Shown piece after piece: positions 6,816-24,000 of a stretch of DNA of 24,000 nt (positions are counted from its first letter, which is position 1; each line of letters starts with the position of its first letter). The notes below the pieces were generated by a model that was not told the origin of the DNA, did no database searches, and saw only the letters and a program-made list of their open reading frames with translations. Source of the stretch: Oscillatoria nigro-viridis PCC 7112 (GTDB taxonomy: Bacteria > Cyanobacteriota > Cyanobacteriia > Cyanobacteriales > Microcoleaceae); contig NC_019729.1 of the NCBI RefSeq assembly GCF_000317475.1, forward strand, positions 6,707,445 through 6,731,444, written 5' to 3'. Made by a program: the position numbers and the translations under genes.

Positions 6816-8147
6816 CTATTTTGCTTCTGTGCGCTGCAGCCACTCCTTATATTTTCTGGTCTCTGCTAGGGCTGGATTAATCCCAAACCAACGACCTTCT
6901 TGATCGCGGTATTCAAAGACAAACATACTTCGCAACAAGATTTGAGACTCTTCTTCGCCGGTTACACTTTGTCGGTTGACGACTTGAAACAGCAATTCCC
7001 ATTCCAGGTCATTGATGGCTCCCAAAAGGTCATCTCGATATTCTTGAATGACGCTTTCGAGGCATTCGCGAGAGAAGGGAGGGTCTTCGTGCTGCAAACA
7101 GCTATACAAAAGCATCAGTAGATTGCGAACGTGACCGCCACTAATCCGACAAAGCCGGTCTAAAGTTTCGGGAGAGTCAAACACCTGGGAAATCAAATCG
7201 ATGCGTTGATGGGGAGCAACTGCGGGGAAAGCTCTAGCTAATACTAGCTGCCGCAGCAGTGCCATTCCTTCCATGTGGTCGTCGCCCGATCGCATTTGCA
7301 CGGGTACCATCGGCATCACCTTGGGCTTGACTCCAAATCGACTGGCGAGGCGGCCGAAGTCGTTGGAAAAAATCAAAGTCAGGGGAATCGTGTAGACGAC
7401 GTGGCAATTGAGTTTTTTCAACTGTTCGCCGCGGTCTAAAAACAAGTATTCTGGCTGGGTGCGTCCGCTGGGTTTGAGGGAGGCGTCGAGGCGATCGAGG
7501 TTGTCAACGATGACTGCGAGTCCTTTTTTTCCTTGCTGCTTGAGTTCGGCGTTAGCTTTGTTGAGGAGTTCTTCGTTGATGGACTGCAAGATGCTGTTGG
7601 TGCGGGGTTCGAGATATTGCCTGAGTTGCGATCGCAGTTTGGGAGAGTCTTTAGTTTTAGCCGTAACTTTAGCAATGCCTATAGATAACTCCGCTTCCGC
7701 TGACAAATCTATGGGAGTCTGCAAAAATTCTGCCACTTCTGCAAACAGATTGGTAAAATAGCTCGGTCTGAGTTTGATTTTAGTCGATTCCATAGTTTCG
7801 CTGACTTGGCGGGCAATGCTCAGCAAAATATCGCTGATGTCTACATCTCCCATGTCTAAGTCTTGGGAAGACTCAAAGTAGACGACGCAAAAACCCTCTT
7901 GCTCTAACTCAGCTTTCAGTCGAAACAATTCGGTAGATTTGCCACACCCGATATGTCCTGTAAATAGCTGACAGGTTGGCTGGTCAGGCGAGATGCGAGT
8001 AATGGTTCGCTGTAAAGATTCAATGATTTTGCCGCCACGCACGGAACCAAAATCAATGTAGTATTGATAATCTCCTGGGTCTCCCGCAACAAGGGTCTTG
8101 CTGGGGTTGCAGGCTTTATAGAATCTGTCTAATTCGAGTGCGATCAC
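6816..8147 (-). CDS. 443-aa P-loop ATPase (AAA+/STAND- or ORC/Cdc6-like; exact family not determinable by eye)
   Basis: GTG start at 8147, with no nearby in-frame ATG. Walker A GHIGCGKST (aa 64-72, nt 7932-7958). Walker B-like LAVIVDNLDRLD (aa ~210-221). Helical C-terminal half. Same strand as, and upstream of, the 1824-aa NTPase gene. Confidence 0.8.
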   Translation of the reverse strand: MIALELDRFYKACNPSKTLVAGDPGDYQYYIDFGSVRGGKIIESLQRTITRISPDQPTCQLFTGHIGCGKSTELFRLKAELEQEGFCVVYFESSQDLDMGDVDISDILLSIARQVSETMESTKIKLRPSYFTNLFAEVAEFLQTPIDLSAEAELSIGIAKVTAKTKDSPKLRSQLRQYLEPRTNSILQSINEELLNKANAELKQQGKKGLAVIVDNLDRLDASLKPSGRTQPEYLFLDRGEQLKKLNCHVVYTIPLTLIFSNDFGRLASRFGVKPKVMPMVPVQMRSGDDHMEGMALLRQLVLARAFPAVAPHQRIDLISQVFDSPETLDRLCRISGGHVRNLLMLLYSCLQHEDPPFSRECLESVIQEYRDDLLGAINDLEWELLFQVVNRQSVTGEEESQILLRSMFVFEYRDQEGRWFGINPALAETRKYKEWLQRTEAK

Positions 8148-8485: not shown

Positions 8486-9376
8486 ATGGCTAGTTTTGGA
8501 GCGGTTTCTCAAACAGAGTTAGGGCGCAGGCGCCAAAAGTTGCGCCAGCAGAGGCGCGCTCGATTGGCGGCTGTTGTGTGGCAAATGCTGGCAGCGAGTG
8601 CAATGGCTGGAGGTTTGCTGTGGTGGATTGCTCAGCCGGCTTGGTTGATTGCCCGATCGGAACAAGTGAAGGTGGAGGGCAATCAGTGGCTGTCGGATAA
8701 GGCGGTGCGGTCTTTGGTGCCGCTGTCTTACCCGCAGTCGCTGTGGGGGATTCAACCGCAGGCCCTGGCCGAAAAGCTGGAGTCAACGGGGCCGATCGCC
8801 AAAGCGAAGGTGACTCGTAACTTGTTTCCGCCGAGTTTGACTGTAGAAGTGGCAGAACGCCTGCCGGTGGCGGTGGCGCAGCCGACTGCGGTGTTGAGAT
8901 CGAACAGTGACAAGGAAAAAGTGGGGTGGCTGGACGCTCGCGGAGGTTGGATGCCGTCGGATAGTTATACTGCTGTACGATCGCAGAATAGTTCGATCGG
9001 GCCCGGCAGCATTCCGGGAACGCAGCCTCAGCGTTCTTTGCCCACTTTAAAAGTCATCGGGCCTTTGGAACAGTATCGCGCCTATTGGCCGAAGTTTTAC
9101 CAAGGACTCAGCGGCTTGACGGTGAAAGTATTTGAGATTAATTGGCAAGACCCGAACAATTTGATCTTGAAAACAGAGATCGGTACCGTACACTTAGGGC
9201 CTTACAGTTCCAAGACTGCGGAGCAACTTAAGGTTTTAGACCGAATGCGACAATTGCCAAAACAGCTAGATTCAAGCAAAATAGCCTACATTGACTTGAA
9301 AAATCCTGCTTCGCCGATGGTCCATTTGCCAGAACTGCCCCCCAGTTTGGAGAGTTCCACTCGCGCCCAGAATTGA
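8486..9376 (+). CDS. ftsQ: Cell division protein FtsQ/DivIB (POTRA-containing)
   Basis: ATG at 8486. Basic N-terminus (RRRQKLRQQRRAR), a TM helix (AAVVWQMLAASAMAGGLLWWIA), then a POTRA-like segment (VKVEGNQWLSDKAVRSLVPL...LTVEVAERLPVAV). It sits upstream of ftsZ, as is typical in cyanobacteria. Confidence 0.85.
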   Translation: MASFGAVSQTELGRRRQKLRQQRRARLAAVVWQMLAASAMAGGLLWWIAQPAWLIARSEQVKVEGNQWLSDKAVRSLVPLSYPQSLWGIQPQALAEKLESTGPIAKAKVTRNLFPPSLTVEVAERLPVAVAQPTAVLRSNSDKEKVGWLDARGGWMPSDSYTAVRSQNSSIGPGSIPGTQPQRSLPTLKVIGPLEQYRAYWPKFYQGLSGLTVKVFEINWQDPNNLILKTEIGTVHLGPYSSKTAEQLKVLDRMRQLPKQLDSSKIAYIDLKNPASPMVHLPELPPSLESSTRAQN

Positions 9377-9699: not shown

Positions 9700-11190
9700 A
9701 CAATTTCGCGCCCTCGTCCCCCAAACTAATTTGGTACTCCCTATCGGTGGGGGGATATAAGGTAGTTATAAACGAAACGCCCTGCGATCGATATTTACTA
9801 CAAGCAAGTGAGGGAATAAGGCGGTTAAATATATCACAATTTCTCCAGTATTCTAAGAAAATTGTAAATTCTGTTAGAATTCGATGGGAGGTTGCACAAT
9901 GCTCTGTTTGACGTACACATACCGAATTTATCCAGATGCCAGTCAAGAAGCCAAAATGCTTGCTTGGATGGAGATTTGTCGCAAAGTTTATAATTACGCT
10001 TTGCGAGAGCGAAAAGACTCGATAGCATCGCGTAAGTGTGCGATCGACGCTTGCAGTATTGATTCTGAGTACATCATTCCATCTGACGCAGCCTATCCTG
10101 ACTATTACAAACAACAGAAGGCCCTGACAAGAGCGAAAAAAGTAAATCCCGAACTCCAAGAGGTTCAATCGCAAGTTTTACAAGATGCCTTGAAGCGACT
10201 CGATCGGGCTTTCAAGTTTATGAAAGAACGTGGTTTTGGGTTTCCTAGATTCAAAAAGTTAGGTTCGTATCGGTCGTTTACTTTCCCTCAGTTCAAAGAC
10301 TATCCATTGATAGGAGTACAAATAAAGCTGCCTAAGATTGGAGCAGTGCCAATTAATTTGCACCGCCCCATCCCAGATGGGTTTGTCATTAAACAGGTGA
10401 GGGTAATCAACAAAGCATCAGGATGGTACACTCAATTGATTTTGCAGTGTGATGTCTCTGTTCCCGATCTCATGCCTCAGGGTTTGTCTATTGGCATCGA
10501 TCTGGGATTGGAGAAATTCTTGGCTGTATCTAACGGTAAGTTACTCTCAAGACCGCGTTTCTTTGTAGACTTGGAAAACAAGCTTAAATGGCTGCAACGC
10601 AAGCTGAGAAACAAAACTAAGGGTTCTGCTAACTACCGCAAGATCCAACACAAAGTCCGCCTTCTGCACGAGCGCATTCACGATCTCCGTAAAGAGTTTC
10701 ATTTCAAAACAGCTCATGCTTTATGCGATTTGGGAGTTGGAATGATTTTTACTGAGGAGTTGAATCTCAAAATGATGAGTCGCGGGATGCTAGCAAAACA
10801 CTGTCTTGATGCTAGTTGGGGCGGATTCCTCGATATCCTATCTTGGGTTTGCTGGAAACGTGGCGTGTACTTTGCTAAAGTTGACCCGAATGGCACTAGC
10901 CAAACTTGTCCTCAGTGTTCCACTCATACAGGAAAGAAAAAGCTGTCCGATCGCATTCGTGCTTGTCATGAGTGTGGATACACAACAGACCGCGATGTTG
11001 CTGCTGCAATGGTAGTAGAACAAAGGGGTCTTGCCGCTGCGGGACTCGCAGTCAAGTTGCCTGTGGAGGTATCGTTATCGGGGACTTCGGTCTAGATACG
11101 ACCAATGAAGCAGGAATGCCCATCTGTGAATTTGGGAAGCCTACACGCTCATTTGGTACTCCAAATCGGTGTATGGAGGATGTCACCAAG
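9700..11190 (+). mobile_element. Solo-tnpB IS200/IS605-family element (no tnpA); boundaries approximate (+/- ~30 bp)
   Basis: A tnpB ORF, plus a shared subterminal motif ATTTGGTACTCC-NN-ATCGGTG at 9729-9749 and 11151-11171. At the right end the motif forms a perfect hairpin, ATTTGG-TACT-CCAAAT (11151-11166). The element lies inside the otherwise conserved ftsQ-ftsZ spacer. Confidence 0.55.
9899..11095 (+). CDS. tnpB: TnpB (IS605 OrfB-type RNA-guided endonuclease), apparently intact
   Basis: The track ORF starts at 9884. The ATG at 9899 is preferred because GGAGG lies 7 nt upstream and it gives MLCLTYTYRIYP.... RuvC-like motifs present: IGIDLGL (D), FTEELN (E), TDRDVAAA (D). Zinc finger CPQC...CHEC. 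Confidence 0.85.
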   Translation: MLCLTYTYRIYPDASQEAKMLAWMEICRKVYNYALRERKDSIASRKCAIDACSIDSEYIIPSDAAYPDYYKQQKALTRAKKVNPELQEVQSQVLQDALKRLDRAFKFMKERGFGFPRFKKLGSYRSFTFPQFKDYPLIGVQIKLPKIGAVPINLHRPIPDGFVIKQVRVINKASGWYTQLILQCDVSVPDLMPQGLSIGIDLGLEKFLAVSNGKLLSRPRFFVDLENKLKWLQRKLRNKTKGSANYRKIQHKVRLLHERIHDLRKEFHFKTAHALCDLGVGMIFTEELNLKMMSRGMLAKHCLDASWGGFLDILSWVCWKRGVYFAKVDPNGTSQTCPQCSTHTGKKKLSDRIRACHECGYTTDRDVAAAMVVEQRGLAAAGLAVKLPVEVSLSGTSV

Positions 11191-11205
11191 CTGTAATCTA
11201 CTACC
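10960..11205 (+). ncRNA. Putative TnpB omega/right-end RNA (scaffold overlapping the tnpB 3' end, guide from flanking DNA)
   Basis: Called by analogy with characterised TnpB systems. The structured 3' region after the stop (aatgaagcaggaatgccc..., hairpin 11151-11166, ...ggaggatgtcac) resembles tnpB 3' tails as I remember them. Ends are not determinable without RNA data. Confidence 0.35.
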
Positions 11206-11215
11206 CCCAACTGTA

Positions 11216-12490
11216 ATGAAGCTTAATAATAGACACGGGTCTGACCAAGACAGTCCCCCTTCGGAAGAAGTAAAAAATTTTCCGGTGGCAGCAGATTCCG
11301 CCAATCCCTTTAGACGCAAGTCTGGTTATGTAAATGTAGATAGTATTGATATCGATCCTATGGTCAATCCCAAAGACATAATGCCCAGCAGTGCCGCCAA
11401 AATCAAAGTAATTGGCGTCGGCGGTGGTGGGGGCAACGCCGTTAACCGGATGATTGCTAGCGAGGTTTCTGGTGTCGAGTTTTGGTGCGTGAATACAGAT
11501 TCCCAAGCTCTGGTTCTCTCAAATGCTCCGAAACGCTTGCAAGTCGGACAGAAGTTGACGCGCGGTTTGGGCGCGGGGGGCAATCCGGCGATCGGCCAAA
11601 AGGCTGCGGAGGAATCTCGCGACGAGGTGGCTAATGCTCTGAATCATGCGGATTTGGTGTTTATCACGGCCGGCATGGGCGGCGGTACGGGCACGGGCGC
11701 GGCTCCGATCGTGGCTGAGGTGGCTAAGGAAATGGGCGCTTTGACTGTGGGCATAGTGACGCGGCCTTTTACGTTTGAGGGACGGCGGCGCACCAGCCAA
11801 GCTGAGGAAGGGATTGCGGCTTTGCAAACTCGGGTGGATACGCTGATCGTAATTCCTAACGACAAGCTGCTGTCTGTGATTTCCGAACAAATGCCGGTAC
11901 AAGAGGCTTTCCGAGTTGCTGACGATATCCTGCGCCAAGGGGTTCAGGGTATTTCTGACATTATTACTATTCCCGGTTTGGTGAACGTTGACTTTGCTGA
12001 CGTGCGGGCAGTAATGGCGGATGCGGGTTCGGCTTTGATGGGCATCGGCGTGGGTTCTGGCAAGTCGCGGGCTAGGGAGGCTGCGATGCAGGCTATTTCT
12101 TCGCCTCTGCTGGAAGCTTCGTCTATTGAGGGCGCTAGAGGTGTGGTGTTTAACATCACTGGCGGTACTGACATGACGCTGCACGAGGTGAATGCGGCTG
12201 CTGAGACGATTTACGAGGTTGTCGATCCGAATGCCAATATTATTTTTGGAGCGGTGATTGACGAGCGGCTTCAGGGCGAAATTAAGATTACTGTGATCGC
12301 TACTGGTTTTTCGGGAGAAGTTCCGTCGCCTCCGACTCCGGGGCGGACGCAAAATGTTAATGCTCCTTGGCGGGCTGCAACTGTGCCGGTGACTCCTGCT
12401 CAACAGACGCCCGATCCGAAAGCGAAACCGCCGCAGGATTTGGGATTGGATATTCCTGAGTTTTTACGCAACCGTCGCCCGCCAAGATGA
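11216..12490 (+). CDS. ftsZ: Cell division GTPase FtsZ
   Basis: [17 protein letters not shown], the tubulin signature [10 protein letters not shown], and NTDSQAL. ATG 11216 (MKLNNRHG...) gives a ~69-aa N-terminal extension containing an NPF motif, as in other cyanobacterial FtsZ. The track start at 11105 lies inside the tnpB element tail and is rejected. Confidence 0.93.
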
Positions 12491-13478: not shown

Positions 13479-13686
13479 GGGAAGCACAGGCGGGACGCCC
13501 GTGCCACAGGGAAGCACAGGCGGGACGCCCGTGCCACAGGGAAGCACAGGCGGGACGCCCGTGCCACAGGGAAGCACAGGCGGGACGCCCGTGCCACAGG
13601 GAAGCACAGGCGGGACGCCCGTGCCACGGAAGCACAGGCGGGACGCCCGTGCCACAGGGAAGCACAGGCGGGACGCCCGTGCCACA
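13479..13686. repeat. Tandem array, 7 copies of a 30-bp GC-rich unit gggaagcacaggcgggacgcccgtgccaca (copy 5 is 28 bp)
   Basis: Read directly from the sequence. The array lies in the divergent spacer between the MBL start (13421) and the thiD start (13742). Each unit contains a small cggg-acg-cccg hairpin. It generates several artefactual repeat-encoded ORFs on both strands. Confidence 0.95.
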
Positions 13687-13741
13687 GATATGATTGGGAT
13701 GTGTGTGGGGAAAGTTGGCGTTTATCGGCGGTTGAAAGAAG

Positions 13742-14551
13742 ATGGTTAAATCGAGGATTCCTGTGGCTTTGACTGTGGCTGGATCTGACAGTGGCGGTGG
13801 GGCCGGGATTCAGGCGGATTTGCGGACTTTTGCGTTTCACTGCGTCCACGGTACGAGTGCTTTGACTTGCGTGACGGCTCAAAATACTTTGGGGGTGATG
13901 CGGGTGGATGCTTTGTCTGCGGAGGCTGTGGCGGCTCAAATTGAGGCGGTGGTTGGGGATATTGGGGTGGATGCTGTGAAGACTGGGATGCTGCTGAACC
14001 GGGAAATTATGGCGGCGGTGGCTTCACAGGTTGAGGCTTTGGGAATCGGGAATTTGGTTGTCGATCCGGTGATGGTTTCGCGATCGGGCGATCGATTGAT
14101 TGACGAGGGGGCGATCGCATTTTTGCGGGATGTTTTGATTCCAATGGCTGCTGTCGTGACTCCGAATCGGTTTGAGGCTCAGATTTTAAGCGGTTTGCAG
14201 ATTGTTTCTGTGGATGATATGCGATCGGCTGCAGAAAGAATTCACAGTTTGGGGGCTAAGGCTGTTTTGGTGAAAGGCGGCGGGATGGCGGGAGATTTGC
14301 GGGGGATTGATGTTTGGTTTGACGGTACGCGGTTGGATGTGTTGAAGACTGAAAATGTTGATACTGGGAATACTCACGGGACTGGTTGTACTTTGAGTGC
14401 TGCGATCGCCGCTAATTTAGCTTTGGGTAAAGATTTGTTTACAGCGGTGAGATTGGCTAAGGATTATGTGACTACTGCTCTCAAATATGCTTTGGATATT
14501 GGGGAAGGCCAAGGGCCAGTAGGTCATTTTTTCCCCCTTTTACTGAAGTAA
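13742..14551 (+). CDS. thiD: Hydroxymethylpyrimidine/phosphomethylpyrimidine kinase ThiD
   Basis: VALTVAGSDSGGGAGIQADLRTF at the N-terminus, VKTGML, GTGCTLSAAIAA, and a length of 269 aa. Confidence 0.9.
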   Translation: MVKSRIPVALTVAGSDSGGGAGIQADLRTFAFHCVHGTSALTCVTAQNTLGVMRVDALSAEAVAAQIEAVVGDIGVDAVKTGMLLNREIMAAVASQVEALGIGNLVVDPVMVSRSGDRLIDEGAIAFLRDVLIPMAAVVTPNRFEAQILSGLQIVSVDDMRSAAERIHSLGAKAVLVKGGGMAGDLRGIDVWFDGTRLDVLKTENVDTGNTHGTGCTLSAAIAANLALGKDLFTAVRLAKDYVTTALKYALDIGEGQGPVGHFFPLLLK

Positions 14552-14743: not shown

Positions 14744-15145
14744 TTAATTTCTTAATTTTTCAGGCGATAAAGCGATCGCCACCAAGTCTTCGATTTTCTT
14801 AATATTCGGATCGCCGGCCAAATAACCAATACCTCGGTGCAAGTGCAGGCGAAACTGTTTCGCTAGAGTTTCTTTTTCTGTGCCTAAATTGTCTTGGTGA
14901 CACCGCTGCTTCAGGGCCATTATCAAGATATCGGCCATGTCGCCGCCGAAGACATCCCAGCTTAATTCGACGTTGCTGTCGCTGGGAATTGGTACTGGCG
15001 ATGGGATGCTGGGCTCGGCGAGCGATCGGCAAAATCCCCACCTGCATAAAATATTCCACTGATCGATTTTGGTCGATCGTTTCAGTTTTGATAGTTGGTC
15101 TTTGCCTGTTTGGGAGAGGCGGATGCGATCGACTGGTGGTTCCAT
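14744..15145 (-). CDS. dndE: DNA sulfur modification protein DndE
   Basis: 133 aa, downstream of dndD on the same strand. The pattern RIRLSQTGKDQLSKLKRSTKIDQWNILCRWGFCRSL ... FRLHLHRGIGYL matches the DndE family as I recall it. Confidence 0.8.
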   Translation of the reverse strand: MEPPVDRIRLSQTGKDQLSKLKRSTKIDQWNILCRWGFCRSLAEPSIPSPVPIPSDSNVELSWDVFGGDMADILIMALKQRCHQDNLGTEKETLAKQFRLHLHRGIGYLAGDPNIKKIEDLVAIALSPEKLRN

Positions 15146-15411: not shown

Positions 15412-17409
15412 TTATTCCCAGAAGTAACCTTTTTCGACGGTGGTTTGGTGTTTGGCGGAGTCGTATTTGAGGAGGTAGCTGTGGGCGATCGCCTCTAATT
15501 CTTGGAGTTTTTCGTATTCTACTTTTCTAATTTCCGTGTCGGTAGAAAGCAGGATGACTTGGTGGCTGGCCGAGGGGAAATAGCGTTCGACTAGGTTGTT
15601 TCTGTGGGAGGAGTCGAGGCGGCCCAAGGGAGTGTCGATCGCCACTGGCAATTGTCTCCCGGATACTCTAGCCAATCCCCACAAAAAGGCGATCGCCAGC
15701 AATTGTTTTTCCCCGGCTGAAAGTCGGTGTTTGGGTACTGGTTTGCCTTCTGGATCGTAAATCGAGAGGCTAAATGTTTGAGTGTCGATCGCAACTCTGT
15801 GCACGAGGTCGGTTTTGTGCAACAGGTAGCGGAAACAGTCGGTAATTTCTATTTCGAGTTTGTTGAGTTTTTTGAGGGTGAGTTTTTCTTTAAAGAGTTT
15901 CAGGGTGGCTTGGGCTTTGGCGATCGAAGCGATGACGTGTTGGCTGTTTCTGATGGTGAGGTATTCGCTGCTGTAGTTTTCTAGTTCTTTTTGGTTTTTG
16001 GCTAATTCTCTCTCTAATTCATCGACGCGGCGGTTGGCTGATTCGCAGGCTGCGGCTGCAATAGCGACTGCTTTTTGGGCTTTCCTGACCTCTTCTTCTA
16101 GCTTTTCGTAGGCTTCGGGGGAAGCGGCGGCTGCGAGTTGTCTGTCTGTGAAGTCGATTTCTGCTTCGATGCTTTTGATTTCTTCTATTTGGTCGCGGGC
16201 TAGGATTTGCTGGGCTTTGATTTGGTAGCTAAGGAGATTTTCTAGTTGCTGGATGCTGTTGTTGTCGGCGTTCATCCAGGGCGGGGCGTCTGTTCCCGCT
16301 TGCTGTTCGAGTTCTTGGTTTTCTTGGCGGATGAAGTCTTGAATTTTATCTAGCTGTTGCGGGTTTAAAGAGATTTCGGCGATATAGTTGAGAAGGCGAT
16401 CGCTTCTTTGTTTGATAACATTTTTGGCAATCTTTGCTTGCTGCTGGCTGGCTTCTGTTTCTGCTTGAGTTTTTGCTTCACTTAGCAAGGGCGAAATAAG
16501 GGCTAGCGGTAGCGTATTTGATGCCAATTCCATCATGGCTTGACGGGTTTTTTCTGCCTGATTTCTGTAGTCGTTTAGCTGTCTGTCTAGCTGACTGCGA
16601 TCGGCGGCAATTTTCCCGCCTTCAGAAATAAACTTTTCTGATGCTTGTTTCTGATTTTTTTGAGCTTTATCAAATTCGTTTTTAAAGCTGGCTTGTTCTT
16701 GCTTAGCTGAGTCTATTTTATCAGTAATTTCCTTAAAAGTTTGTTCGATTTTCTCTAAAGCAGCCAAGTCTTTTTTGCCAGCAATTTCTTTCCGCTTGCG
16801 GCCGGCTAAAATTTCTAAATCGACGGCGAGGCGTTCTGCTAATTCTAAACCTAAAAGAGATTTAATCGCCCCGACGACAAACTCTGGCGGTGTTTCGAGT
16901 TCGGCAAGTTCTTTTACTTGTTCGCCGTCAAACAGAAATAGGTTGGATATTCCAACTGGCAAAAGGGTTTCGATGTATTCGTCCCAAGTGTTAGTAATTG
17001 CTTTGTCCGACCACCAATCGCTGACAATCTCGCTGTATATGAGAATGCTTAAGGTGTCTTTGATATCTAATTTTTTCCAGTATCTAACTATTTTAAATTG
17101 AGCTAATTTGTCATCTTGGACTTGTTCAAATGTTAGTTCGACGCGGGTATCTTCTAATGGGGGGGTGTGGCGGTTGACGCATTGATTGAGAAAGTCGCTG
17201 TAGCTTAAATTGCCTCTGGTAGAACATTGGGCGCGGCCACCGTAGAGGGCGAGGCGAATGCCGTCCATGAGGGTGGTTTTGCCGCCGCCATTCATGCCGC
17301 CAAATAAAATGACTGGGCAGGGATTTCCGTCTTTTTCGGGGCGGAGATTGATGGTTTGGGTGCCTGCATAGGGGCCGAAGTTTTTGAGGACGAGTTCGAG
17401 GAATTGCAT
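15412..17409 (-). CDS. dndD: DNA sulfur modification protein DndD (SMC/ABC-like ATPase)
   Basis: N-terminus MQFLELVLKNFGPYAG...ILFGGMNGGGKTTLMDGIRLALYG, a long coiled-coil middle, and C-terminus LSAGEKQLLAIAFLWGLARVSGRQLPVAIDTPLGRLDSSHR...ILLSTDTEI. Confidence 0.93.
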   Translation of the reverse strand: MQFLELVLKNFGPYAGTQTINLRPEKDGNPCPVILFGGMNGGGKTTLMDGIRLALYGGRAQCSTRGNLSYSDFLNQCVNRHTPPLEDTRVELTFEQVQDDKLAQFKIVRYWKKLDIKDTLSILIYSEIVSDWWSDKAITNTWDEYIETLLPVGISNLFLFDGEQVKELAELETPPEFVVGAIKSLLGLELAERLAVDLEILAGRKRKEIAGKKDLAALEKIEQTFKEITDKIDSAKQEQASFKNEFDKAQKNQKQASEKFISEGGKIAADRSQLDRQLNDYRNQAEKTRQAMMELASNTLPLALISPLLSEAKTQAETEASQQQAKIAKNVIKQRSDRLLNYIAEISLNPQQLDKIQDFIRQENQELEQQAGTDAPPWMNADNNSIQQLENLLSYQIKAQQILARDQIEEIKSIEAEIDFTDRQLAAAASPEAYEKLEEEVRKAQKAVAIAAAACESANRRVDELERELAKNQKELENYSSEYLTIRNSQHVIASIAKAQATLKLFKEKLTLKKLNKLEIEITDCFRYLLHKTDLVHRVAIDTQTFSLSIYDPEGKPVPKHRLSAGEKQLLAIAFLWGLARVSGRQLPVAIDTPLGRLDSSHRNNLVERYFPSASHQVILLSTDTEIRKVEYEKLQELEAIAHSYLLKYDSAKHQTTVEKGYFWE

Positions 17410-17444
17410 TGTAGATGTTGTTGAGATGGGATGAAAGTTGGTGG

Positions 17445-17964
17445 GTGCGATCGGTGTGTCTGACAGTCTGGGGTCGATCTGTGAGTCCCCTAGTACGACA
17501 GGGATTGAAATCCCTGTCTCATAGCTGAAGTCCTCTGAAAGAGGACTGAAGTTTGTGACTGTTGAATCGGGGTTTTTAGTCTGTCTGTGATTCCCCCATT
17601 ACGACAGGGATTGAAATCCCTGTCTCATAGCTGAAGTCCTCTTGAAGAGGACTGAAATTTGTGACTGTTGAATCGGGGTTTTTAGTCGGTTTTAACCGAC
17701 TTTTGCTTTCTCGACGGGGATTTCAATCCCCGGTGGATCTTGGGGTAAGGGCGATCGACCAATCGAGTCGATCGGGGTCGATCTGTGAGTCCCCTAGTAC
17801 GACAGGGATTGAAATCCCTGTCTCATAGCGAAAGTCCTCTTGAAGAGGACTGAAGTCGGCGATCGTTTGATTTGGCTTTTCAGTCGGTTAAAACCGACTT
17901 TCGCTATTAGACGGGGATTTCAATCCCCGGCGGACTTGTGGGTAAGCCCGATCGCCCCCAAAGT
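17445..17964. repeat. Cluster of ~3.5 tandem copies of a ~180-bp quasi-palindromic multi-hairpin element (REPIN-like)
   Basis: Unit structure: CAGGGATtgaaATCCCTG-tctcatagc-AGTCCTCTtgaAGAGGACT, a spacer, then AGTCGGTTttaaACCGACT-ttcgct-CGGGGATttcaATCCCCG-gcgga...gcccgatcgcccc. Copies lie at ~17445-17580 (left half only), 17581-17757 and 17765-17964. Confidence 0.85.
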
Positions 17965-18014
17965 CTGAATAGCTGGAGATGCCGCGAGTCGGAGAGTCTG
18001 CCAATGTTTTTCAA

Positions 18015-18467
18015 TTAATTCTCTGCCGAATTCGGGTGCCACCGAGTAGGTGGATTGTCTCGATCCGTGATTTGTTCTAAATGCGAATTTGTGGTTTTTT
18101 GCAAGTGATGTTCTTTTTGATTTATCACATAAGCGACTGCTGAGTCTAGTTGTTTTTGTCCTAAAGAAAATACTCCGTATCCTTCTTGCCACGAAAATTT
18201 ATTGGGATTTTGCAAAGTTTGATTGAGATAACGGCTGCTGCTACCTTTAATATTTTTAACGAATTCAGCGATCGATTGTGTCGGAGGAATGGAAACTATT
18301 AAGTGGATGTGATTTTCTGTGCCGCCGATCGCATGAAGGATGCAATTGAGGGTGTCTGCTTTGCCGGTGATATAAGAGTAAAGTTCGGTTTCTTTTGCGG
18401 GAGATATGAGAGGCTGTCGCTCTTTTGTTGCCCAAACTAAATGATAGTACAGCAGCCACATTGCCAT
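18015..18467 (-). CDS. tnpA: IS200/IS605-type Y1 (HUH) transposase, RAYT-like (REP-associated), apparently intact
   Basis: 150 aa: MAMWLLYYHLVWATKERQPL..., HUH motif NHIHLIVS, GYGVFS, and C-terminal AYVINQKEHH (Tyr with Gln four residues later, as in IS608 TnpA Y127/Q131). Hairpin repeat clusters flank it on both sides and there is no tnpB next to it. Confidence 0.8.
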   Translation of the reverse strand: MAMWLLYYHLVWATKERQPLISPAKETELYSYITGKADTLNCILHAIGGTENHIHLIVSIPPTQSIAEFVKNIKGSSSRYLNQTLQNPNKFSWQEGYGVFSLGQKQLDSAVAYVINQKEHHLQKTTNSHLEQITDRDNPPTRWHPNSAEN

Positions 18468-18525
18468 AAAAATTTTTCCTCCTAATTTTTTAGGTTAATT
18501 TATCATTTTGCGACCAACTCCGAGA

Positions 18526-18714
18526 GTGCGATCGGGGTCGATCGGGGAGTCCCGTAGTCCGACAGTCCGACAGGGATTGAAATCCCTGTCTCATAGCTGA
18601 AGTCCTCTTAAAGAGGACTGAAGTCTGCCATTGTTTGATTTTGCCCTTCAGTCGGTTTTAACCGACTTTCGCTTTCTCGACGGGGATTTCAATCCCCGGC
18701 GGATCTTCGGGTTA
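18526..18714. repeat. Fourth full copy of the REPIN-like multi-hairpin element, same orientation as the 17445-17964 cluster
   Basis: cagggattgaaatccctgtctcatagctgaagtcctcttaaagaggact...agtcggttttaaccgactttcgctttctcgacggggatttcaatccccggcgga. Confidence 0.85.
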
Positions 18715-18794
18715 GCCCGATCGCCCCAAAGCCCGATCGCCCCAAAGCCCGATCGCCCCAAAGCCCGATCGCCCCAAAGCCCGATCGCCCCAAA
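18715..18794. repeat. Perfect tandem repeat, 5 x 16 bp (gcccgatcgccccaaa)
   Basis: Read directly from the sequence. The 16-mer is the terminal motif of the REPIN-like unit (a single copy lies at 17946-17964). The array ends 28 bp from the dndC stop. Confidence 0.95.
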
Positions 18795-18822
18795 GTGCGA
18801 TCGCCCGATCGACATTATTGAC

Positions 18823-20508
18823 CTAATCTTTGCTATTTTTCTCTCCTACATCGGGAGTAGAAAATTTAATATCCGCCCAAGATAGCTGTCTGCTTTGATT
18901 GCTGCTGCTTTCGAGTTCTTCTTTAAGCTTGGCAATATCAACCGTCTCGTTTTTTGCGGAACTGTTGGTTTGGGCGATCGCATCTTTGAATTGCTGAATT
19001 TTTTCCGTCGGATTTGCTTTAATATCTTCCACCGCTTTTTTTAAATTGCGTTGATAGTGGGCGTTGCCAATCGCTTCTTCCTTCGATCGCGAACTGGTTT
19101 CAAAGCATTTGTCCAAATCGGCGTAAATGCCTGTACGGCGCGGCTTCGTGTAGTATTGGCGTTCTGTATCGAGGAGTTTTGCCATCAATTCGAGGTGCAT
19201 TTTGTCCTCGCTGCAAATCTCTTCGATCGCAGTCCATTCATCGCTACCTAGGAGTTTTCTTTCGGCGGCGGGACGGGAATCTTCAAAAGGTTCGCCCGTG
19301 ACTTCTTCGTAAATTCGGGGCAAAGAGTCGTCAAATTCGTGCTTTTCTTCCAGCCAAATTCGGCGGATTTCGCTAAGTTCTTCCGGGGTAATTAAGGTGA
19401 TGTCGCGCATTTCTAGGGGTGCGGTTTTGCGGATTTGGGTTTGTGCTTCCAAGACTCGTCTCAGCCAGTGTTCTCGCCAGTATTTGGTGTAAGGCCCTGG
19501 GATGGGTTCGACGGAGGTTGTGTCGTCGCCCATGTTGCGTTCAAACAGTTCTACTCTACCGTAAATGCGTCGGAAGTCTCTTTTTGGGCGATCGTCTTTT
19601 ATATCTAATTCGTTGCGAATATCGAGGAGAGGCTGCATCCATTCTTTTTCCTCATCATTCAAAATCATTGCCTGCATAGATTTATCTTGGTCTACCATTG
19701 TACAAACCCAGCAGCCAAAGCGAGAATCTCCACAGCTAGGCGTAGAAGTATCAACGACTAGAGGGCATTCGTTATCTGCTGTCGCACCGCGATACATGGT
19801 AAACAAGTCTTTATTGTCACCTCCCCAAGGGTTAGGATACTGCATTAGATAAAGCCAAACTTCATCATCCCGCCAGTCTTCCACAGGAGTATAAATTAGA
19901 GAGTTAATTAAACGAGAATTAGGACTCAATCGCTCGCGCACTCTACCTGCTTCATGTCTTTTCATTGTTGCAGCGCGTTTGCTGCTCTCAGCCTTTCGAG
20001 TGCCTAAAACAACAATAGTTTCACCGTGAACCCTAACCATTTCACGGATAAAATGGTTAACAGGTTGAATTTTCATACGATCGGTACACCAGCGAAATCC
20101 ATTTCGAGGTGCTGGATAGCCTTTCCCCATTAAGCATACCCAGAATGTTTCTTGAAAGGAAGGATGAAGCAGATGAGGTTCGACTGGCATTTTTTGCTGG
20201 TTAGCTGCTAGCTTAACATATTTAATGCAATTGCGAACCCAGGTAGAAATTATCGGATTTTCAACCAGCGTATCTGTTGTAATTAAATGAATTGTTTTTG
20301 TGCGTTTTTCCAGTGGGAGTGCTGCGATTGCATACCATATTAACTGCAATACTGCACTCGAATCTTTTCCAAAAGATACGCCTAAAACCCAGGGAATTTC
20401 ATCGCTACAATACAAATCCTGAATTTCTTGAGTTAACTTTTCTACATCATCCACTAACTCAGTAACGCTGCGCGGTGGGAATAGTGGCATCTGCTGAGCT
20501 TGTGTCAT
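18823..20508 (-). CDS. dndC: DNA phosphorothioation sulfurtransferase DndC (PAPS-reductase-like ATP pyrophosphatase, Fe-S)
   Basis: ATG at 20508 with AGGAG ~9 nt upstream. PP-loop-like VLGVSFGKDSS, the cysteine motif SCGDSRFGCWVCT, and a length of 561 aa. Confidence 0.93.
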   Translation of the reverse strand: MTQAQQMPLFPPRSVTELVDDVEKLTQEIQDLYCSDEIPWVLGVSFGKDSSAVLQLIWYAIAALPLEKRTKTIHLITTDTLVENPIISTWVRNCIKYVKLAANQQKMPVEPHLLHPSFQETFWVCLMGKGYPAPRNGFRWCTDRMKIQPVNHFIREMVRVHGETIVVLGTRKAESSKRAATMKRHEAGRVRERLSPNSRLINSLIYTPVEDWRDDEVWLYLMQYPNPWGGDNKDLFTMYRGATADNECPLVVDTSTPSCGDSRFGCWVCTMVDQDKSMQAMILNDEEKEWMQPLLDIRNELDIKDDRPKRDFRRIYGRVELFERNMGDDTTSVEPIPGPYTKYWREHWLRRVLEAQTQIRKTAPLEMRDITLITPEELSEIRRIWLEEKHEFDDSLPRIYEEVTGEPFEDSRPAAERKLLGSDEWTAIEEICSEDKMHLELMAKLLDTERQYYTKPRRTGIYADLDKCFETSSRSKEEAIGNAHYQRNLKKAVEDIKANPTEKIQQFKDAIAQTNSSAKNETVDIAKLKEELESSSNQSRQLSWADIKFSTPDVGEKNSKD

Positions 20509-20680: not shown

Positions 20681-21856
20681 ATGCCTAATGACAACTCGAA
20701 TCAGCCAGAACTCAACCAGCGACTAGATGAATTCCTTGAGCCGTACTTCGCCAGATACCACCGTCAGAAGTGCTATCCGGGCTTAATCTTTCAGCATGGA
20801 AAGCGAAAAATGGTACAATTCAACGTGCCTGCTGATGACTTACCTACTCTCCTTCAAGCAAAACCTTCTACAAATAACGAGCCTGAGTCTGGTAAAAACC
20901 GTCCAGAGATTAAGGGCCATGCTGAGGAAGTCAAGGAGTACATTCTCAAGCGCGTTAGAAAAGACCAACCCTGGATTGTGGGTACACTCACTGCAAATGT
21001 CGATCCAGAGAAGATTGAAATTATCGAACTAAGTCGGGGCATTTGCTTAGTAGTTATCCCTCGTGGCGTTAAGTTAGATATTACTGACGGACAGCACCGT
21101 AAGCGAGCGATTCACGAATTGATTGAGAGTGCTAACGGCGAGTTAATTGGAGATAATGATTTCCCAATTACGCTAGTTTTAGAAGGCAACTTAAATCAGT
21201 GTCAAAGAGACTTTAGAGATATGGCGCAAACAAAAGCGCTGGATAAATCGTTACTCTTGTCCTTTGGCGAAATGGAAGGTCGAATAGGTATTTGCAAACA
21301 GTTAATTGAACAAGTGCCAATTTTTAAGGGCAAGACAGAGAAAGTTAAAGGTTCTCCATCATCTAAAGAAAAGCGAATATATACAATGAATTATGTAGTA
21401 AAGGCTGTTAGTTGCGCTTTTGCTAACGATCCGAATAACGAGCTGAAAGATTGCGATTTATCAGAATGCTCGGCAGCTATAATTAGTGGTCTCACTCAAT
21501 TTTTTACAGAATGCAGTCTAACTCAATACATTTATGAGACAGAGGCTCATGATTTGACAGTTAATGAAATTGATAACTTTAAAGAAAGTTGTTTATTGGG
21601 CAGGAGCGTGGGAATAGAAATATTAGGAAAGTTACTCTACTGCACTTATGATGCTGATAGCTATTGCTTCGATCCAGAACAAGTATCAGAACTTGCTCAA
21701 CTTGATTGGTCAAGAAAAAGCCACCTTTGGGAAGGAAATGTGGTTTTGTCGAACAATAATCCCAATAATCTTGTTCGTAACTATAGAATAACAGCTAGTG
21801 TTAATGCTGTAAAAATGGCAGTAAATCAAGTAAAAGCCCATCTAGAATGGATTTAA
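20681..21856 (+). CDS. DGQHR-domain (ParB/DndB-like) protein, divergent paralog inserted between dndB and dndC
   Basis: 391 aa. LDITDGQHRKRAIHELIE, with the DGQHR codons at 21086-21100. There is no IRGIQAGREYY-type DndB N-terminus. My hand GC counts on five 60-nt lines average ~39%, against ~50-55% for the neighbouring dndB. Confidence 0.8.
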   Translation: MPNDNSNQPELNQRLDEFLEPYFARYHRQKCYPGLIFQHGKRKMVQFNVPADDLPTLLQAKPSTNNEPESGKNRPEIKGHAEEVKEYILKRVRKDQPWIVGTLTANVDPEKIEIIELSRGICLVVIPRGVKLDITDGQHRKRAIHELIESANGELIGDNDFPITLVLEGNLNQCQRDFRDMAQTKALDKSLLLSFGEMEGRIGICKQLIEQVPIFKGKTEKVKGSPSSKEKRIYTMNYVVKAVSCAFANDPNNELKDCDLSECSAAIISGLTQFFTECSLTQYIYETEAHDLTVNEIDNFKESCLLGRSVGIEILGKLLYCTYDADSYCFDPEQVSELAQLDWSRKSHLWEGNVVLSNNNPNNLVRNYRITASVNAVKMAVNQVKAHLEWI

Positions 21857-21862
21857 CCCATA

Positions 21863-23002
21863 TTATGCGCCTTCCTTGTGGCACGGGCGTCCCGCCTGTG
21901 CTGTATCTGCGGTTTCCAAACCCAACCGATTTTTTAAATAATCAGTCATCCAACTAACACTCGCCCTCGACTTAGAAATCCCCCCTTTCAACAAAATCCC
22001 ATTCTCCCAATCAGGATTAGAAATCGACCAATCAACCTGCTGCAAAAGGCTCAAACGTTCCTCCCAACTCTCAGGAAAAACCGATCGCAAAGCCGCCCCA
22101 ACTTCCCCCAAACTCTCAAGCACAACACTGTGACAGTGTACGCAATCCCGGCGCATTTCCCCCGCCGCAACTTGCTTGTGCAGAACTAATTGCCAATCTG
22201 GAATAAAATTGCTAACCGCATTCCAATAACTAACCGCCAGTTGTATTTTTTGAGCGAGTTCTTCCTCTTTCTGTTCTTTTTTGGTGCGAGAACCAGAGGG
22301 TTGTGCCTGTTTGCTGCCGTGAATATTAGACAGCAAAGCCACGATCGCACGATCGATCGCACTCAGCGTAAACAATTTGTGCGATCGCCCGTTCAAACTC
22401 CCCCTCTCCATCTCAGTCAAACACCGGAAAACCTCAACCTGCTTAACAACCGCCTTCACCACAAAAGCCCGATCGTCCCGGTGGTTGTAAAGTAGACTTA
22501 GCGACGCCTCCAAAGGAACTTGAAAACCATTCAAATCAGCAAACATCTGCTGCGATTTTTCCAACCCAATATCGAGAAACAAAATCAGCGCCACCGTCTC
22601 ATATCCCAACTGCGGATTTTCCCTCAAAGCCATCTCAAAAGCCGCCCGGCGATGCTGTCCGTCATTAATAGTAAACTTAGCATCCATCGGCACTCGCAAG
22701 CGACCTATTTTCCGTTCTTCTGCCTCATTTCCCACAGCTTCAAAAGTAATATCCGCATCAATCGAAGCAGCAATTGCCCCACAAGTATAATTTGTAGGAT
22801 TCTTGACAAAATAATCAGCAATTTCGGGAATCCTAGCTTTGTTAAGCGCGCGTTTTGCCCGCATAGACGGCGGCAAATCTTCAGATTCAAAGGGAAACAA
22901 TTTCGGCAAAAAACGCACCGGACACATCGACACGTAATATTCGCGGCCCGCTTGAATTCCCCGGATAACCGGCAAAATGTATTCAAAAGAAGGAGTAGAC
23001 AT
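21863..23002 (-). CDS. dndB: DNA sulfur modification protein DndB (canonical DGQHR protein)
   Basis: FEYILPVIRGIQAGREYYVSMCPVRFLPKLF, LNKARIPEIADY, FTINDGQHRRAAFEMAL (DGQHR codons at 22649-22663), SQQMFADLN. I prefer ATG 23002 (MSTPSFEY...). The track start at 23062 is a TTG, and an ATG also exists at 23056. Confidence 0.88.
   Translation of the reverse strand: MSTPSFEYILPVIRGIQAGREYYVSMCPVRFLPKLFPFESEDLPPSMRAKRALNKARIPEIADYFVKNPTNYTCGAIAASIDADITFEAVGNEAEERKIGRLRVPMDAKFTINDGQHRRAAFEMALRENPQLGYETVALILFLDIGLEKSQQMFADLNGFQVPLEASLSLLYNHRDDRAFVVKAVVKQVEVFRCLTEMERGSLNGRSHKLFTLSAIDRAIVALLSNIHGSKQAQPSGSRTKKEQKEEELAQKIQLAVSYWNAVSNFIPDWQLVLHKQVAAGEMRRDCVHCHSVVLESLGEVGAALRSVFPESWEERLSLLQQVDWSISNPDWENGILLKGGISKSRASVSWMTDYLKNRLGLETADTAQAGRPCHKEGA
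21877..21902 (-). repeat. Solo inverted copy (26/30 nt) of the 30-bp unit that forms the 13479-13686 array
   Basis: tgtggcacgggcgtcccgcctgtgct is the reverse complement of agcacaggcgggacgcccgtgccaca. It lies inside the last ~13 codons of dndB (…AQAGRPCHKEGA*) and ~20 bp from the stop of the convergent DGQHR gene. Confidence 0.9.
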
Positions 23003-23083
23003 ATTTTTTTGTTGGTTGCAGGTGCGAAGTATGAAGAAATCAGGGGCAAGTGCCATCGTCAATTCACTCGCTTCCTCGATATT

Positions 23084-23253
23084 CCGCCGGGGGTTGAAAC
23101 CCCCGTCTGATAGCGAAAGTCGGTTAAAACCGACTAAACATAAACCTCGAAATTGATCCGTATTCAGTCCTCATAGCGAGGACTTTTGCTATGAGACAGG
23201 GGTTTCAACCCCTGGCGGGCCCGGATGGTGACCGGTTTTCAACCCCTGGCGGA
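23084..23253. repeat. Inverted, diverged copy of the REPIN-like multi-hairpin element (GGGGTTGAAACCCC variant)
   Basis: ccgCCGGGGGTTgaaaCCCCCGtctgatagcgaaAGTCGGTTaaaACCGACT...AGTCCTCatagcGAGGACTtttgctatgagaCAGGGGTTtcaaCCCCTGgcggg. This matches the reverse complement of the 17765-17964 unit, with paired (compensatory) stem changes. An extra partial hairpin lies at 23231-23253. Confidence 0.8.
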
Positions 23254-23398
23254 GTCAGACGGTGGCGCGTGACACCCAGACGCATCTGCATCAAGCCCGA
23301 TCGCCCCTCAGCTATTGACAAATAAAACATTAAATGATATGTAAGGTTGAACTTATTAGTATTTTAAGTATTTCACAAAAATTTTTTAAAAACAAGAG

Positions 23399-23427
23399 TT
23401 GACATACAATTTAACCTATGATATTTT
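23399..23427 (+). promoter_or_regulatory. Candidate sigma70-type promoter for the third DGQHR gene
   Basis: TTGACA (23399-23404), a 17-nt spacer, then TATTTT (23422-23427), ~34 nt before the ATG at 23461. The AT-rich context makes this call weak. Confidence 0.3.
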
Positions 23428-23460
23428 TGAAAAAATAGCCTAATTATATAGAAACCGCCG

Positions 23461-24000
23461 ATGAACGCCAATCCAGCGGATGACCTCGCTAGCAAAATTT
23501 TAGAAAAAGAAAATAGCGACAGACAGGAAATCGCACTTTTATTAGATAATTATTTAGGAAAGGACAATCGCATTTTCGTCCAAAAAACCCAGATGGGAAA
23601 CAGCGAAGCATACATCGGTTCAGTCACCCTAGAATGGTTAGACTCTCGCGTCCGTTTCGCCTCCCAGATGCCGCTTTTCCGCCAAAAATTCGACCTCCAA
23701 ACCAACAACATCGTCCGCGACGACGAAACCATTGACGAAATTATCCAGCGTCCCTTAGATTGGTCGCGCCAAGCCGCCTTAACTCAATATTTAGCAGCCC
23801 GAAAATCGCACAAATTCCCCGCAGTTTTAGTAGTAGTCAGTCCCCCGTGGGTAGATAATCCTTTAGCCGAGGAATGGGATAAAAATGGCGTAGCAACTAA
23901 ATCGGCGGCTGAATTTACATCCTTTGATAAAAACGAGAACTTAGGGCTGTTGAATGTCTCTCAAAAAGTCTCAATTTTTGCCTTAGACGGCCAGCATCGG
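23461..24000 (+). CDS. Third DGQHR-domain protein, N-terminal 180 codons (runs off the right edge)
   Basis: Absent from the ORF track because it has no stop. The ATG at 23461 is the first start after an in-frame TAG (23449-23451). My translation: MNANPADDLASKILEKENSDRQEIALLLDNYLGKDNRIFVQKTQMGNSEAYIGSVTLEWLDSRVRFASQMPLFRQKF...IQRPLDWSRQAALTQYLAARKSHKFPAVLVVVSPPWV...VSIFALDGQHR. The DGQHR codons are the last 15 nt of the window (23986-24000). Confidence 0.75.
   Translation, partial: MNANPADDLASKILEKENSDRQEIALLLDNYLGKDNRIFVQKTQMGNSEAYIGSVTLEWLDSRVRFASQMPLFRQKFDLQTNNIVRDDETIDEIIQRPLDWSRQAALTQYLAARKSHKFPAVLVVVSPPWVDNPLAEEWDKNGVATKSAAEFTSFDKNENLGLLNVSQKVSIFALDGQHR

Follow-up and report, generated by a model that had tools for sequence, protein, structure and literature searches.

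A long DGQHR-domain gene family associated with DNA phosphorothioation loci in cyanobacteria and other bacteria

What is the role of the gene that opens at the right-hand end of the dnd locus of the cyanobacterium Oscillatoria nigro-viridis PCC 7112? The window analysed here, a stretch of 24,000 nucleotides (contig NC_019729.1, positions 6,707,445 to 6,731,444, forward strand), ends inside this gene, directly after the codons of a DGQHR motif. DNA phosphorothioation (PT) systems usually combine a writer (dnd or ssp) with one restriction partner (dndFGH, pbeABCD, sspE or sspFGH), and DndB is an optional repressor. The window carries dndB, dndC, dndD and dndE, with three DndB-family genes inside 3.3 kb, and an original prediction took the truncated gene for a third DGQHR gene, unlike the other two, that might be the first gene of a PT-linked defence module continuing rightwards. 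Analysis of the window and of related loci revealed that the gene belongs to a family of long DGQHR proteins and is an accessory gene of PT loci. In Microcoleus it stands alone, with dndB-C-D-E on one side and a convergent pbeD-C-B-A module on the other. We give roughly an even chance to a regulatory role, in which the protein would act as a DndB-type switch at its own promoter.

The ATG at 23461 is the first start codon downstream of an in-frame TAG (23449–23451), and the plus-strand frame is free of stops from there to 24000, giving 180 of about 530 codons with ...VSIFALDGQHR as the last residues. Microcoleus genomes carry an intact 530-codon open reading frame (ORF) whose start is 98% identical to the window fragment (for example L001:10001-11593), and the match extends to the C-terminus in 77 of the 80 genomic orthologs, two of the remaining three being cut by a contig end. 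That the window stops right after DGQHR is mere chance; what is said here of the C-terminal ~350 residues, and of any sequence past base 24000, is inferred from relatives that are 94–98% identical. Each of the ten Microcoleus/Tychonema orthologs compared differs from the window gene at more synonymous than nonsynonymous codons (e.g. 17 versus 3, 40 versus 8 and 44 versus 12), which shows that this is a real gene under purifying selection. The window resembles Microcoleus vaginatus; none of the related loci is from the same strain, and they are ~94–97% identical to the window, with L012 the best match across dndC, the paralog and dndB. The closest match to the fragment itself (P0006) lies on an error-rich contig of another strain, 94–95% identical to the window, and an exact search with the window's 391-residue paralog returned only 4.4-kb contigs that stop in dndB and nothing past the window.

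A split gene or an intein just after DGQHR was also considered, as a search with the 180-residue fragment gave only proteins of at most 294 residues, many of them at contig ends. This was ruled out: longer matches continue through the motif (...DGQHRLMGVQGL...), genomic loci hold intact 530-residue ORFs, and a full-length query gave hundreds of full-length proteins. The short matches reflect how the search tool gathers candidates.

Profile searches placed the protein in the DGQHR superfamily and in none of its named families. The window fragment matches the TIGR03187 'DGQHR domain' model at 89.6 bits (E 2.9e-25, model positions 1–107 of 276), above the cut-off of 58.85, thus indicating that its DGQHR is no chance motif and bearing out the call of a third DGQHR-domain gene; a full-length ortholog scores 181.2 bits. 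That ortholog also passes the gathering threshold of the Pfam DndB family PF14072 (45.7 bits against 29.1), as does a homolog from outside the cyanobacteria (59.4 bits), whereas the 180-residue fragment alone stays below it at 26.8 bits. The DndB equivalog model TIGR03233 (cut-off 328) gave no match with the fragment and 16.4 bits with the full-length ortholog, and size and position do not fit DndB either: DndB has ~355–400 residues and comes first in a co-directional dndBCDE operon, while the present gene encodes 530 residues and is divergent from dndB or dndC in all cyanobacterial loci. Neither fragment nor full-length ortholog matches DpdB (NF041060, cut-off 300 bits), and no dpd genes occur in the window or related loci; TIGR04172 (DGQHR_dnd_1, cut-off 450 bits) gave no match at E 0.01 or better with either. 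PADLOC has no model that the fragment matches, and the full-length protein gives only a weak DndB match (E 2e-4). It has no PADLOC SspE match and no nuclease domain in Pfam, which sets it apart from SspE/GmrSD, and it matches no Pbe model, the Pbe proteins being encoded by separate neighbouring genes in relatives. The gene also differs from its two neighbours, as had been proposed: BLASTP of the full-length ortholog against the window's DndB and the paralog at 20681–21856 aligned only ~20 residues around DGQHR (E 0.47 and 0.20), while these two proteins match one another at E 1e-17. We define here a 'long DGQHR' PT-associated family (~520–580 residues; Q-R-x5-R, DGQHR and R254 boxes; located beside dnd or ssp). 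The window fragment fits it by N-terminus and context, with 51–98% identity to the N-termini of members and 243 bits against the family hidden Markov model (HMM).

The family is large. A scan with one genome per species gave at least 551 related stretches, the best 80 of which come from Microcoleus, Tychonema, Laspinema, Oscillatoria, Coleofasciculus, Trichodesmium, Okeania and Dapis. With the full-length protein as query, 605 relatives were found; the best 120 are 64–98% identical, ~530 residues long, nearly all cyanobacterial and named nothing more specific than 'DGQHR domain-containing protein'. An exhaustive search of 50%-identity representatives yielded 571 clusters, 127 of them below E 1e-30, and full-length homologs of 520–580 residues reach down to ~30% identity. 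Outside the cyanobacteria these include the gammaproteobacterium Psychromonas marina, the actinobacterium Mycobacteroides abscessus and many unassigned metagenomic contigs. In 53 diverse members (down to 30% identity) Q96, R97, R103, Y110, W130, W139, D176, G177, H179, R180, R254, R408 and R504 are invariant, and Q178 of DGQHR is conserved in at least 90%. Two of the boxes lie within the window, the arginine-rich box Q96-RPLDWSR-Q104 (23746–23772), which is invariant as a whole among cyanobacterial members, and further downstream the ParB/Srx-type phosphate-binding box D176-G-Q-H-R180 (23986–24000), both on the plus strand. An AlphaFold2 model from the 53-member alignment is confident (predicted local distance difference test, pLDDT, 91.6; predicted template-modelling score, pTM, 0.83). 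Searches of the PDB revealed no similar structure, either by sequence profile or by Foldseek with models of pLDDT 75 and 91.6 (E at least 0.9). Against BFVD, Foldseek gave weak matches, with template-modelling (TM) scores below 0.3 throughout: an unnamed 549-residue viral protein (E 1e-6), and giant-virus proteins of the GmrSD N-terminal and DndB-like kinds (E 1e-3 to 1e-2). What makes the protein longer than DndB is a helix at the N-terminus, two insertions and an extended C-terminus. The long DGQHR protein is a separate deep branch of the DndB/ParB-like fold and not a DndB ortholog.

The genomic context of the family was surveyed with HMMs for Dnd, Pbe, Ssp and partner proteins against all ORFs of 175 sources (the window and 174 loci), the genome and metagenome samples consisting of the 80 best loci each; the family labels in this census rest on small ad hoc models. 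Two types of locus can be distinguished. In type A, comprising 124 cyanobacterial-type loci, the long DGQHR gene stands alone. dndC/D adjoin it in 96 of the 98 loci with at least 3 kb of upstream sequence, and dndC lies within 6 kb upstream in 65/65 genome loci. Downstream, pbeD is found in 71 of 86 loci and pbeC in 62 of 82; the census found no ssp genes in type A. Canonical dndB occurs in 61 of 98 type-A loci overall, but in only 4 of 25 from metagenomes, a sample that is not dominated by Microcoleus. Among the metagenome loci dndC is the nearest divergent gene in 24 of 37, and a divergent dnd-type gene of any kind is found in 31 of 37. In Trichodesmium, Chlorogloeopsis PCC 9212 and the majority of metagenomic cyanobacterial loci, canonical dndB is missing and the long DGQHR gene takes its place, immediately divergent from dndC.

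The window itself contains no dndFGH-, pbe- or sspE-like partner, and this part of the original prediction holds after profile scans. Relatives show what may lie beyond. In M. vaginatus GB1-A2 (L001) every gene past the long DGQHR stop codon is on the opposite strand: a 227-residue ORF without family match, an EEP-family nuclease gene, a TIGR04062/dnd_assoc_4 gene (158 residues) and a Uma2 gene are followed by a 688-residue ABC ATPase (PADLOC PbeC, 1086 bits), a 105-residue ORF and a 463-residue helicase, which matches TIGR04095 'DNA phosphorothioation system restriction enzyme' at 656 bits and positions 241–681 of the PADLOC PbeA profile. Since PbeA combines HKD and superfamily 2 (SF2) helicase parts, PbeB is small, PbeC is a CxC ABC ATPase and PbeD is a DndE cognate of ~150 residues (Xiong et al. 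2019; 2024 reappraisal), this block is a pbeD-C-B-A module. Among Microcoleus/Tychonema loci with at least 7 kb of downstream sequence, pbeD is present in 43/44 and pbeC in 42/44, and the module lies within ~9 kb of the long DGQHR gene in 42–43 of these 44 close relatives. A PT-linked defence module beyond the window is therefore what relatives contain. All pbeD (53/53) and pbeC (50/50) genes found downstream are on the minus strand, convergent with the long DGQHR gene, and pbeD follows at distances of 100 to 8241 nt. In Microcoleus the long DGQHR gene is monocistronic and outside the operon of the PT-dependent defence module that follows it.

Several features of this interval may be noted. 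The Microcoleus pbeA ORF (463 residues; L001:17512-20002 and equivalents) covers the helicase part only and showed no HKD/phospholipase D (PLD) domain. Genes of the Uma2 family lie between pbeD and pbeC as well as upstream of pbeA, and an EEP-family nuclease gene sits beside pbeD in 44/44 Microcoleus/Tychonema loci. Variable cargo separates the long DGQHR gene from the EEP-pbeD-pbeC block in several Microcoleus strains (L007, L014, L025, L006, L016, L028, L003, L009, L177). A gene of the alpha-amylase family is part of it, as is an IS630 transposase in L177, and this interval is an insertion hotspot. The 227-residue neighbour, and a 216-residue one found in Crinalium, have no Pfam match.

Type B comprises 38 non-cyanobacterial loci, in which a small GIY-YIG gene, the long DGQHR gene and a RelA_SpoT-domain gene form a cassette in this order (for example L088, L089, L091-L094, L103, L131, L138, L141 and L144-L152). 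Where there is enough flank, GIY-YIG is directly upstream in 31 of 34 loci and RelA_SpoT directly downstream in 18 of 27. Pfam confirms both domains, and the RelA_SpoT partner matches the PADLOC phage-defence candidate PDC-S33 (114–135 bits). Such cassettes adjoin dndA/dndBCDE in L088, L091, L092, L131 and L155/L156, and they come directly after sspB-sspC-sspD (L093/L094) or after sspD (L145, L149, L151, L164) elsewhere; a PT writer, dnd or ssp, is nearby in 13 of 18 well-flanked type-B loci. Two intermediates are known: Psychromonas has pbeABCD, a GIY-YIG/long DGQHR pair and dndBCDE together, and in M. abscessus the GIY-YIG/long DGQHR pair comes after dndA and dndBCDE, with pbe lacking. HMMs of the GIY-YIG and RelA_SpoT partners gave no match in any cyanobacterial locus or in the window. 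That Dnd and Ssp neighbours occur across the two types ties the family to PT systems generally and not to one restriction partner, and the cassette is a possible PT-linked defence module not described before. The tie to PT loci on which the original prediction depended thus stands, in cyanobacteria and beyond, for a protein that is no DndB equivalog, DpdB, TIGR04172 or PADLOC-modelled protein.

Inspection of the start of the gene revealed a promoter-like site of its own, as had been suggested. A sigma-70-type promoter-like site on the plus strand (23399–23427; TTGACA at 23399–23404, a 17-nt spacer and an extended -10 TGnTATTTT) has 10/12 matches and ends 34 nt upstream of the ATG. Directly upstream of the -35 lies an operator-like palindrome, O1 (23382–23393; TTTTTTAAAAAC, consensus GTTTTTAAAAAC), conserved across loci, and TTGACA occupies the same place relative to it in Microcoleus, Tychonema, Coleofasciculus and one Trichodesmium locus (L072). 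A second, imperfect palindrome read from the window sequence, O2 (23423–23436; ATTTTTGAAAAAAT), overlaps the -10 and the likely transcription start. Of 85 cyanobacterial loci, 84 have the T5A5 motif of O1 between positions -115 and -50 relative to the start codon. The 1.45 Mb that these loci comprise contain it 103 times in total, 84 times at the long DGQHR promoter position, and all but one of the copies outside this range are the same promoter site counted from another start. The palindrome persists across cyanobacterial genera in which the intergenic sequence has diverged. Many of the loci are closely related, about ten genera being represented, so that these counts overstate independence; within the window alone, the single T5A5 occurrence is not significant. 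T5A5 is present in 109/121 type-A loci versus 0/27 type-B loci. For O2, 66 of the 121 type-A loci have TTTTT[A/G]AAAA no more than 50 nt from the ATG, and in 58 of them the O1–O2 spacing is 41–43 bp. No wider T5A5 regulon was apparent, the palindrome being absent upstream of pbe or other genes in the loci.

Such a pair of sites has a precedent. Salmonella DndB protects two regions, BB1 and BB2, at about -72 to +4 of the dndBCDE promoter region, each with one palindromic motif, and mutation of these motifs impairs its binding (PMC4507180). The O1/O2 geometry is closely similar to that of the two DndB operators of Salmonella. In many cyanobacterial loci the gene has both the position of DndB, divergent from dndC, and a DndB-like palindrome pair, and this favours a part in regulation no less than one as a sensor. 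The two roles are not mutually exclusive.

A mechanism is proposed in which a dimer or oligomer of the long DGQHR protein would bind the putative operators O1, upstream of the -35, and O2, at the -10 and transcription start, whose spacing of ~42 bp would correspond to four helical turns. The bound protein would repress its own gene and the divergently transcribed dnd genes, and a nucleoside triphosphate (NTP) at the DGQHR/arginine pocket would release or recycle it; a DndB-like protein has been reported to bind both ATP and GTP (PMC12704722). Such a switch could set the level of the PT writer at the junction with the PT-dependent restriction genes, and the many cyanobacteria without canonical dndB would have no DndB-type regulator other than the long DGQHR protein. 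Taken as a whole (an NTP-modulated DndB-type DNA-binding switch that binds O1 and O2, regulates itself and the dnd genes, and is the sole such regulator where dndB is lacking), this reading seems to us evenly balanced between right and wrong.

A number of observations weigh against it. The alignment to DndB by hhalign is collinear (residues 40–395 against DndB 17–307, with insertions) but of low probability, since both alignments are shallow. No recognisable helix-turn-helix (HTH) was detected in the long DGQHR protein, and no solved structure resembles it. The type-B loci lack the T5A5 motif (0/27), and there the gene lies in an operon with a GIY-YIG nuclease and a RelA/SpoT protein, or beside ssp modules that have no DndB; such a context suits a defence effector cassette better than a dnd repressor. 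Canonical DndB coexists with the long DGQHR protein in Microcoleus, Crinalium, Psychromonas, M. abscessus, L088, L091 and L092, and the two are therefore not simply redundant. Finally, the palindromes could instead serve as an A/T-rich UP element or bind a different regulator.

The main rival, which we regard as possible rather than probable, is that the protein is an SspE-like sensor of PT state that reads PT status in an NTP-dependent manner and licenses neighbouring effectors: PbeABCD and/or the SBD-HNH (SBD, sulfur-binding domain) and EEP nucleases in cyanobacteria, and the GIY-YIG and RelA/SpoT proteins in other phyla. The 38 type-B loci speak for this, with their PDC-S33-matching RelA_SpoT partner. 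Some cassettes come right after sspBCD or sspD, the place expected for a defence partner of an Ssp writer, and others lie beside dndA/dndBCDE (L091, L092, L131, L155/L156). The frequency of pbeD (71/86) and pbeC (62/82) downstream in cyanobacterial loci is also in line with it, as is the non-redundant function implied by coexistence with canonical DndB. However, hmmsearch found neither the GIY-YIG nor the RelA_SpoT partner in cyanobacterial loci, the gene is never co-oriented with pbe, and the intervening cargo varies. Chlorogloeopsis and M. abscessus carry the gene with dnd but without pbe, ssp or the RelA_SpoT partner within 10 kb, and the protein has no SspE or other PADLOC match to support the role and no detected sulfur-binding domain. 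The evidence for a sensor comes from gene context throughout. Tentatively, the sensor idea can be extended to the whole family, which might then mark an undescribed PT-linked module. In proteobacteria, actinobacteria and uncultured lineages a small GIY-YIG nuclease, the long DGQHR protein as PT/NTP sensor and a RelA/SpoT-domain nucleotide pyrophosphokinase would form a PT-sensing restriction or abortive-infection arm for Dnd or Ssp writers, and the cyanobacterial gene would be the same sensor, separated from these effectors and re-paired with PbeABCD and SBD-HNH nucleases.

It is improbable that the protein is instead an enzymatic effector, a nuclease or NTPase of the ParB/Srx superfamily that nicks DNA or depletes nucleotides as a back-up when PT fails, as has been suggested for DndB (NAR 2024 reappraisal). 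The strict conservation of the DGQHR box and the arginines, the location in a defence island and the existence of ParB/Srx members with nuclease or NTPase activity (PMC10853773) are consistent with such a role. Yet the gene is stably and widely carried without a visible immunity gene, identity of at least 64% across cyanobacterial orders is atypical for toxic effectors, and separate nucleases accompany the long DGQHR gene.

The view that this is the first gene of an operon running rightwards past the window, which the original prediction had raised, is contradicted by the data and very unlikely. It could draw on the promoter that the gene possesses, on a same-strand ORF of 216 residues that follows in Crinalium, and on the RelA_SpoT gene that follows on the same strand in type-B loci. 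However, in relatives the gene ends at 530 codons, and in the Microcoleus/Tychonema clade the gene for the 227-residue protein (unk227), the EEP nuclease gene and pbeD, pbeC, pbeB and pbeA are all on the minus strand, with unk227 lying only 10 nt past the long DGQHR stop in L012; the invariable convergence of pbeD and pbeC and the varying cargo likewise speak against a first gene of that module. A decaying or redundant dndB duplicate without a function of its own, as the crowding of three DndB-family genes might suggest, is effectively refuted by conservation: the protein shows pairwise similarity to neither of the window's other DGQHR proteins beyond the motif region, 77 of 80 genomic orthologs are full-length, synonymous changes predominate, and the family spans several phyla at conserved length.

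Comparison with known systems helps to delimit the family. With DndB/DptB (TIGR03233; PF14072), the repressor of dndBCDE, it shares the DGQHR motif and domain, the collinear residues 40–395, adjacency to dndC/D and two palindromic promoter sites, as at the Salmonella dndB promoter (PMC4507180). It differs in its length (530 versus ~355–400 residues), in the absence of overall BLASTP similarity to the window's DndB, in being divergent where DndB is the first gene of dndBCDE, in coexisting with DndB in many loci, and in occurring also beside ssp modules and in the GIY-YIG/RelA-SpoT cassette. SspE, the PT-sensing effector of SspABCD (DUF262/DGQQR with a C-terminal nuclease), has a ParB-like fold and a D-G-Q-x-R box as well; some long DGQHR proteins are encoded right after sspBCD, and in type B the nuclease is a separate GIY-YIG polypeptide. 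In contrast to SspE, long DGQHR proteins have DGQHR in place of DGQQR, no fused DUF1524/HNH and no PADLOC SspE match, and the cyanobacterial genes have no adjoining co-oriented nuclease. PbeABCD, centred on a CxC-ABC ATPase, is a genomic neighbour in 42–43/44 close relatives and in Psychromonas, but the long DGQHR protein is not a Pbe protein, its gene lies on the opposite strand across a variable spacer, and many loci are without pbe. DpdB (NF041060) and TIGR04172 'DNA phosphorothioation-associated DGQHR protein 1' belong to the same DGQHR domain superfamily, yet their models have only 352 and 381 positions against 530 residues, and no dpd (7-deazaguanine) genes are near. ParB CTPase-fold switches are similar in their predicted NTP-binding fold and in conserved arginine and G-x-x-R-type boxes; unlike them, the long DGQHR protein lacks a parS/HTH architecture and a ParA partner, and Foldseek gave no PDB neighbour.

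The family thus represents a second, much longer DndB-fold lineage that tracks Dnd and Ssp writers and is absent from curated defence-system models. We found no description of the long DGQHR subfamily or of the GIY-YIG/RelA_SpoT cassette in the literature; a genomics paper on Microcoleus noted only dndBCDE and a nearby 'type III restriction enzyme' (PMC8546630). PT specialists would probably not have expected a third, long DndB-fold lineage common to Dnd and Ssp loci, a single locus with three DndB-family genes, or a conserved pair of operator-like sites. As the only DndB-type gene beside dndCD in many cyanobacteria, the long DGQHR gene is probably needed to understand the control of PT levels there. 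The two-palindrome promoter offers a directly testable operator hypothesis, and the GIY-YIG/RelA-SpoT cassette found in relatives outside the cyanobacteria is a concrete candidate for a PT-dependent defence arm of a new kind. For annotation, a dedicated family model is warranted instead of the generic 'DGQHR domain-containing protein'.

The remaining dnd genes of the window were assigned by profile. Canonical dndB (21863–23062, minus strand; TIGR03233 409 bits against a cut-off of 328, PADLOC DndB 440 bits) is divergent from the long DGQHR gene. The second DndB-family paralog, of 391 residues, is on the plus strand (20681–21856) and scores 291 bits with Pfam DndB and only 65.5 bits with TIGR03233. 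dndC (18823–20508; TIGR03183 697 bits), dndD (15412–17409; TIGR03185 647 bits) and dndE (14744–15145; TIGR03184 136.6 bits) are on the minus strand, as is an IS200/IS605-type Y1 transposase gene, tnpA (18015–18467), in the dndD–dndC spacer. In 65 loci the slot between dndC and dndB holds the 391-residue paralog in 25 and an SBD-HNH endonuclease in 32, and both together in none; these two genes look like interchangeable accessory cassettes. The SBD-HNH protein resembles the phosphorothioated-DNA-binding restriction endonuclease model NF045808, with a score under its cut-off, and the paralog is located downstream of the long DGQHR gene in metagenomic L104, L111, L117 and L121.

The interval between dndB and the long DGQHR gene contains, at 23064–23272, nested inverted repeats with a GGGTTTCAACCCCTGGCGG core and 38–39-nt arms at 72–89% complementarity. 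A direct repeat of 31 nt is also present there (23200 and 23234); the repeats at 23064–23272 look like a small insertion of the miniature inverted-repeat transposable element (MITE) or repetitive extragenic palindromic (REP) type. In the dndD–dndC spacer (17410–18822) a 106-nt unit is repeated twice (17478–17687) and a 16-nt unit 5.8 times (18714–18806), and the 106-nt repeat at 17478 holds a comparable short palindromic hairpin, GGGATTGAAATCCC. The same spacer has multiple repeated segments of ~160–400 nt in related strains. Further to the left, a 30-nt unit occurs seven times in tandem (13479–13687, 97% matches) upstream of thiD (13742–14551) and yields spurious minus-strand ORFs with ARASRLCFPV repeats. 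A TnpB/IS605 OrfB gene with a Cas12f1-like TNB domain (9884–11095) is inserted between ftsQ (8486–9376) and ftsZ (11105–12490). At 658–8147, an 1824-residue protein with at least 14 WD40 repeats and a P-loop region is encoded beside a 443-residue KAP/STAND-like NTPase, which gives weak PADLOC matches to PDC-S20; these two proteins may be another conflict-system pair.

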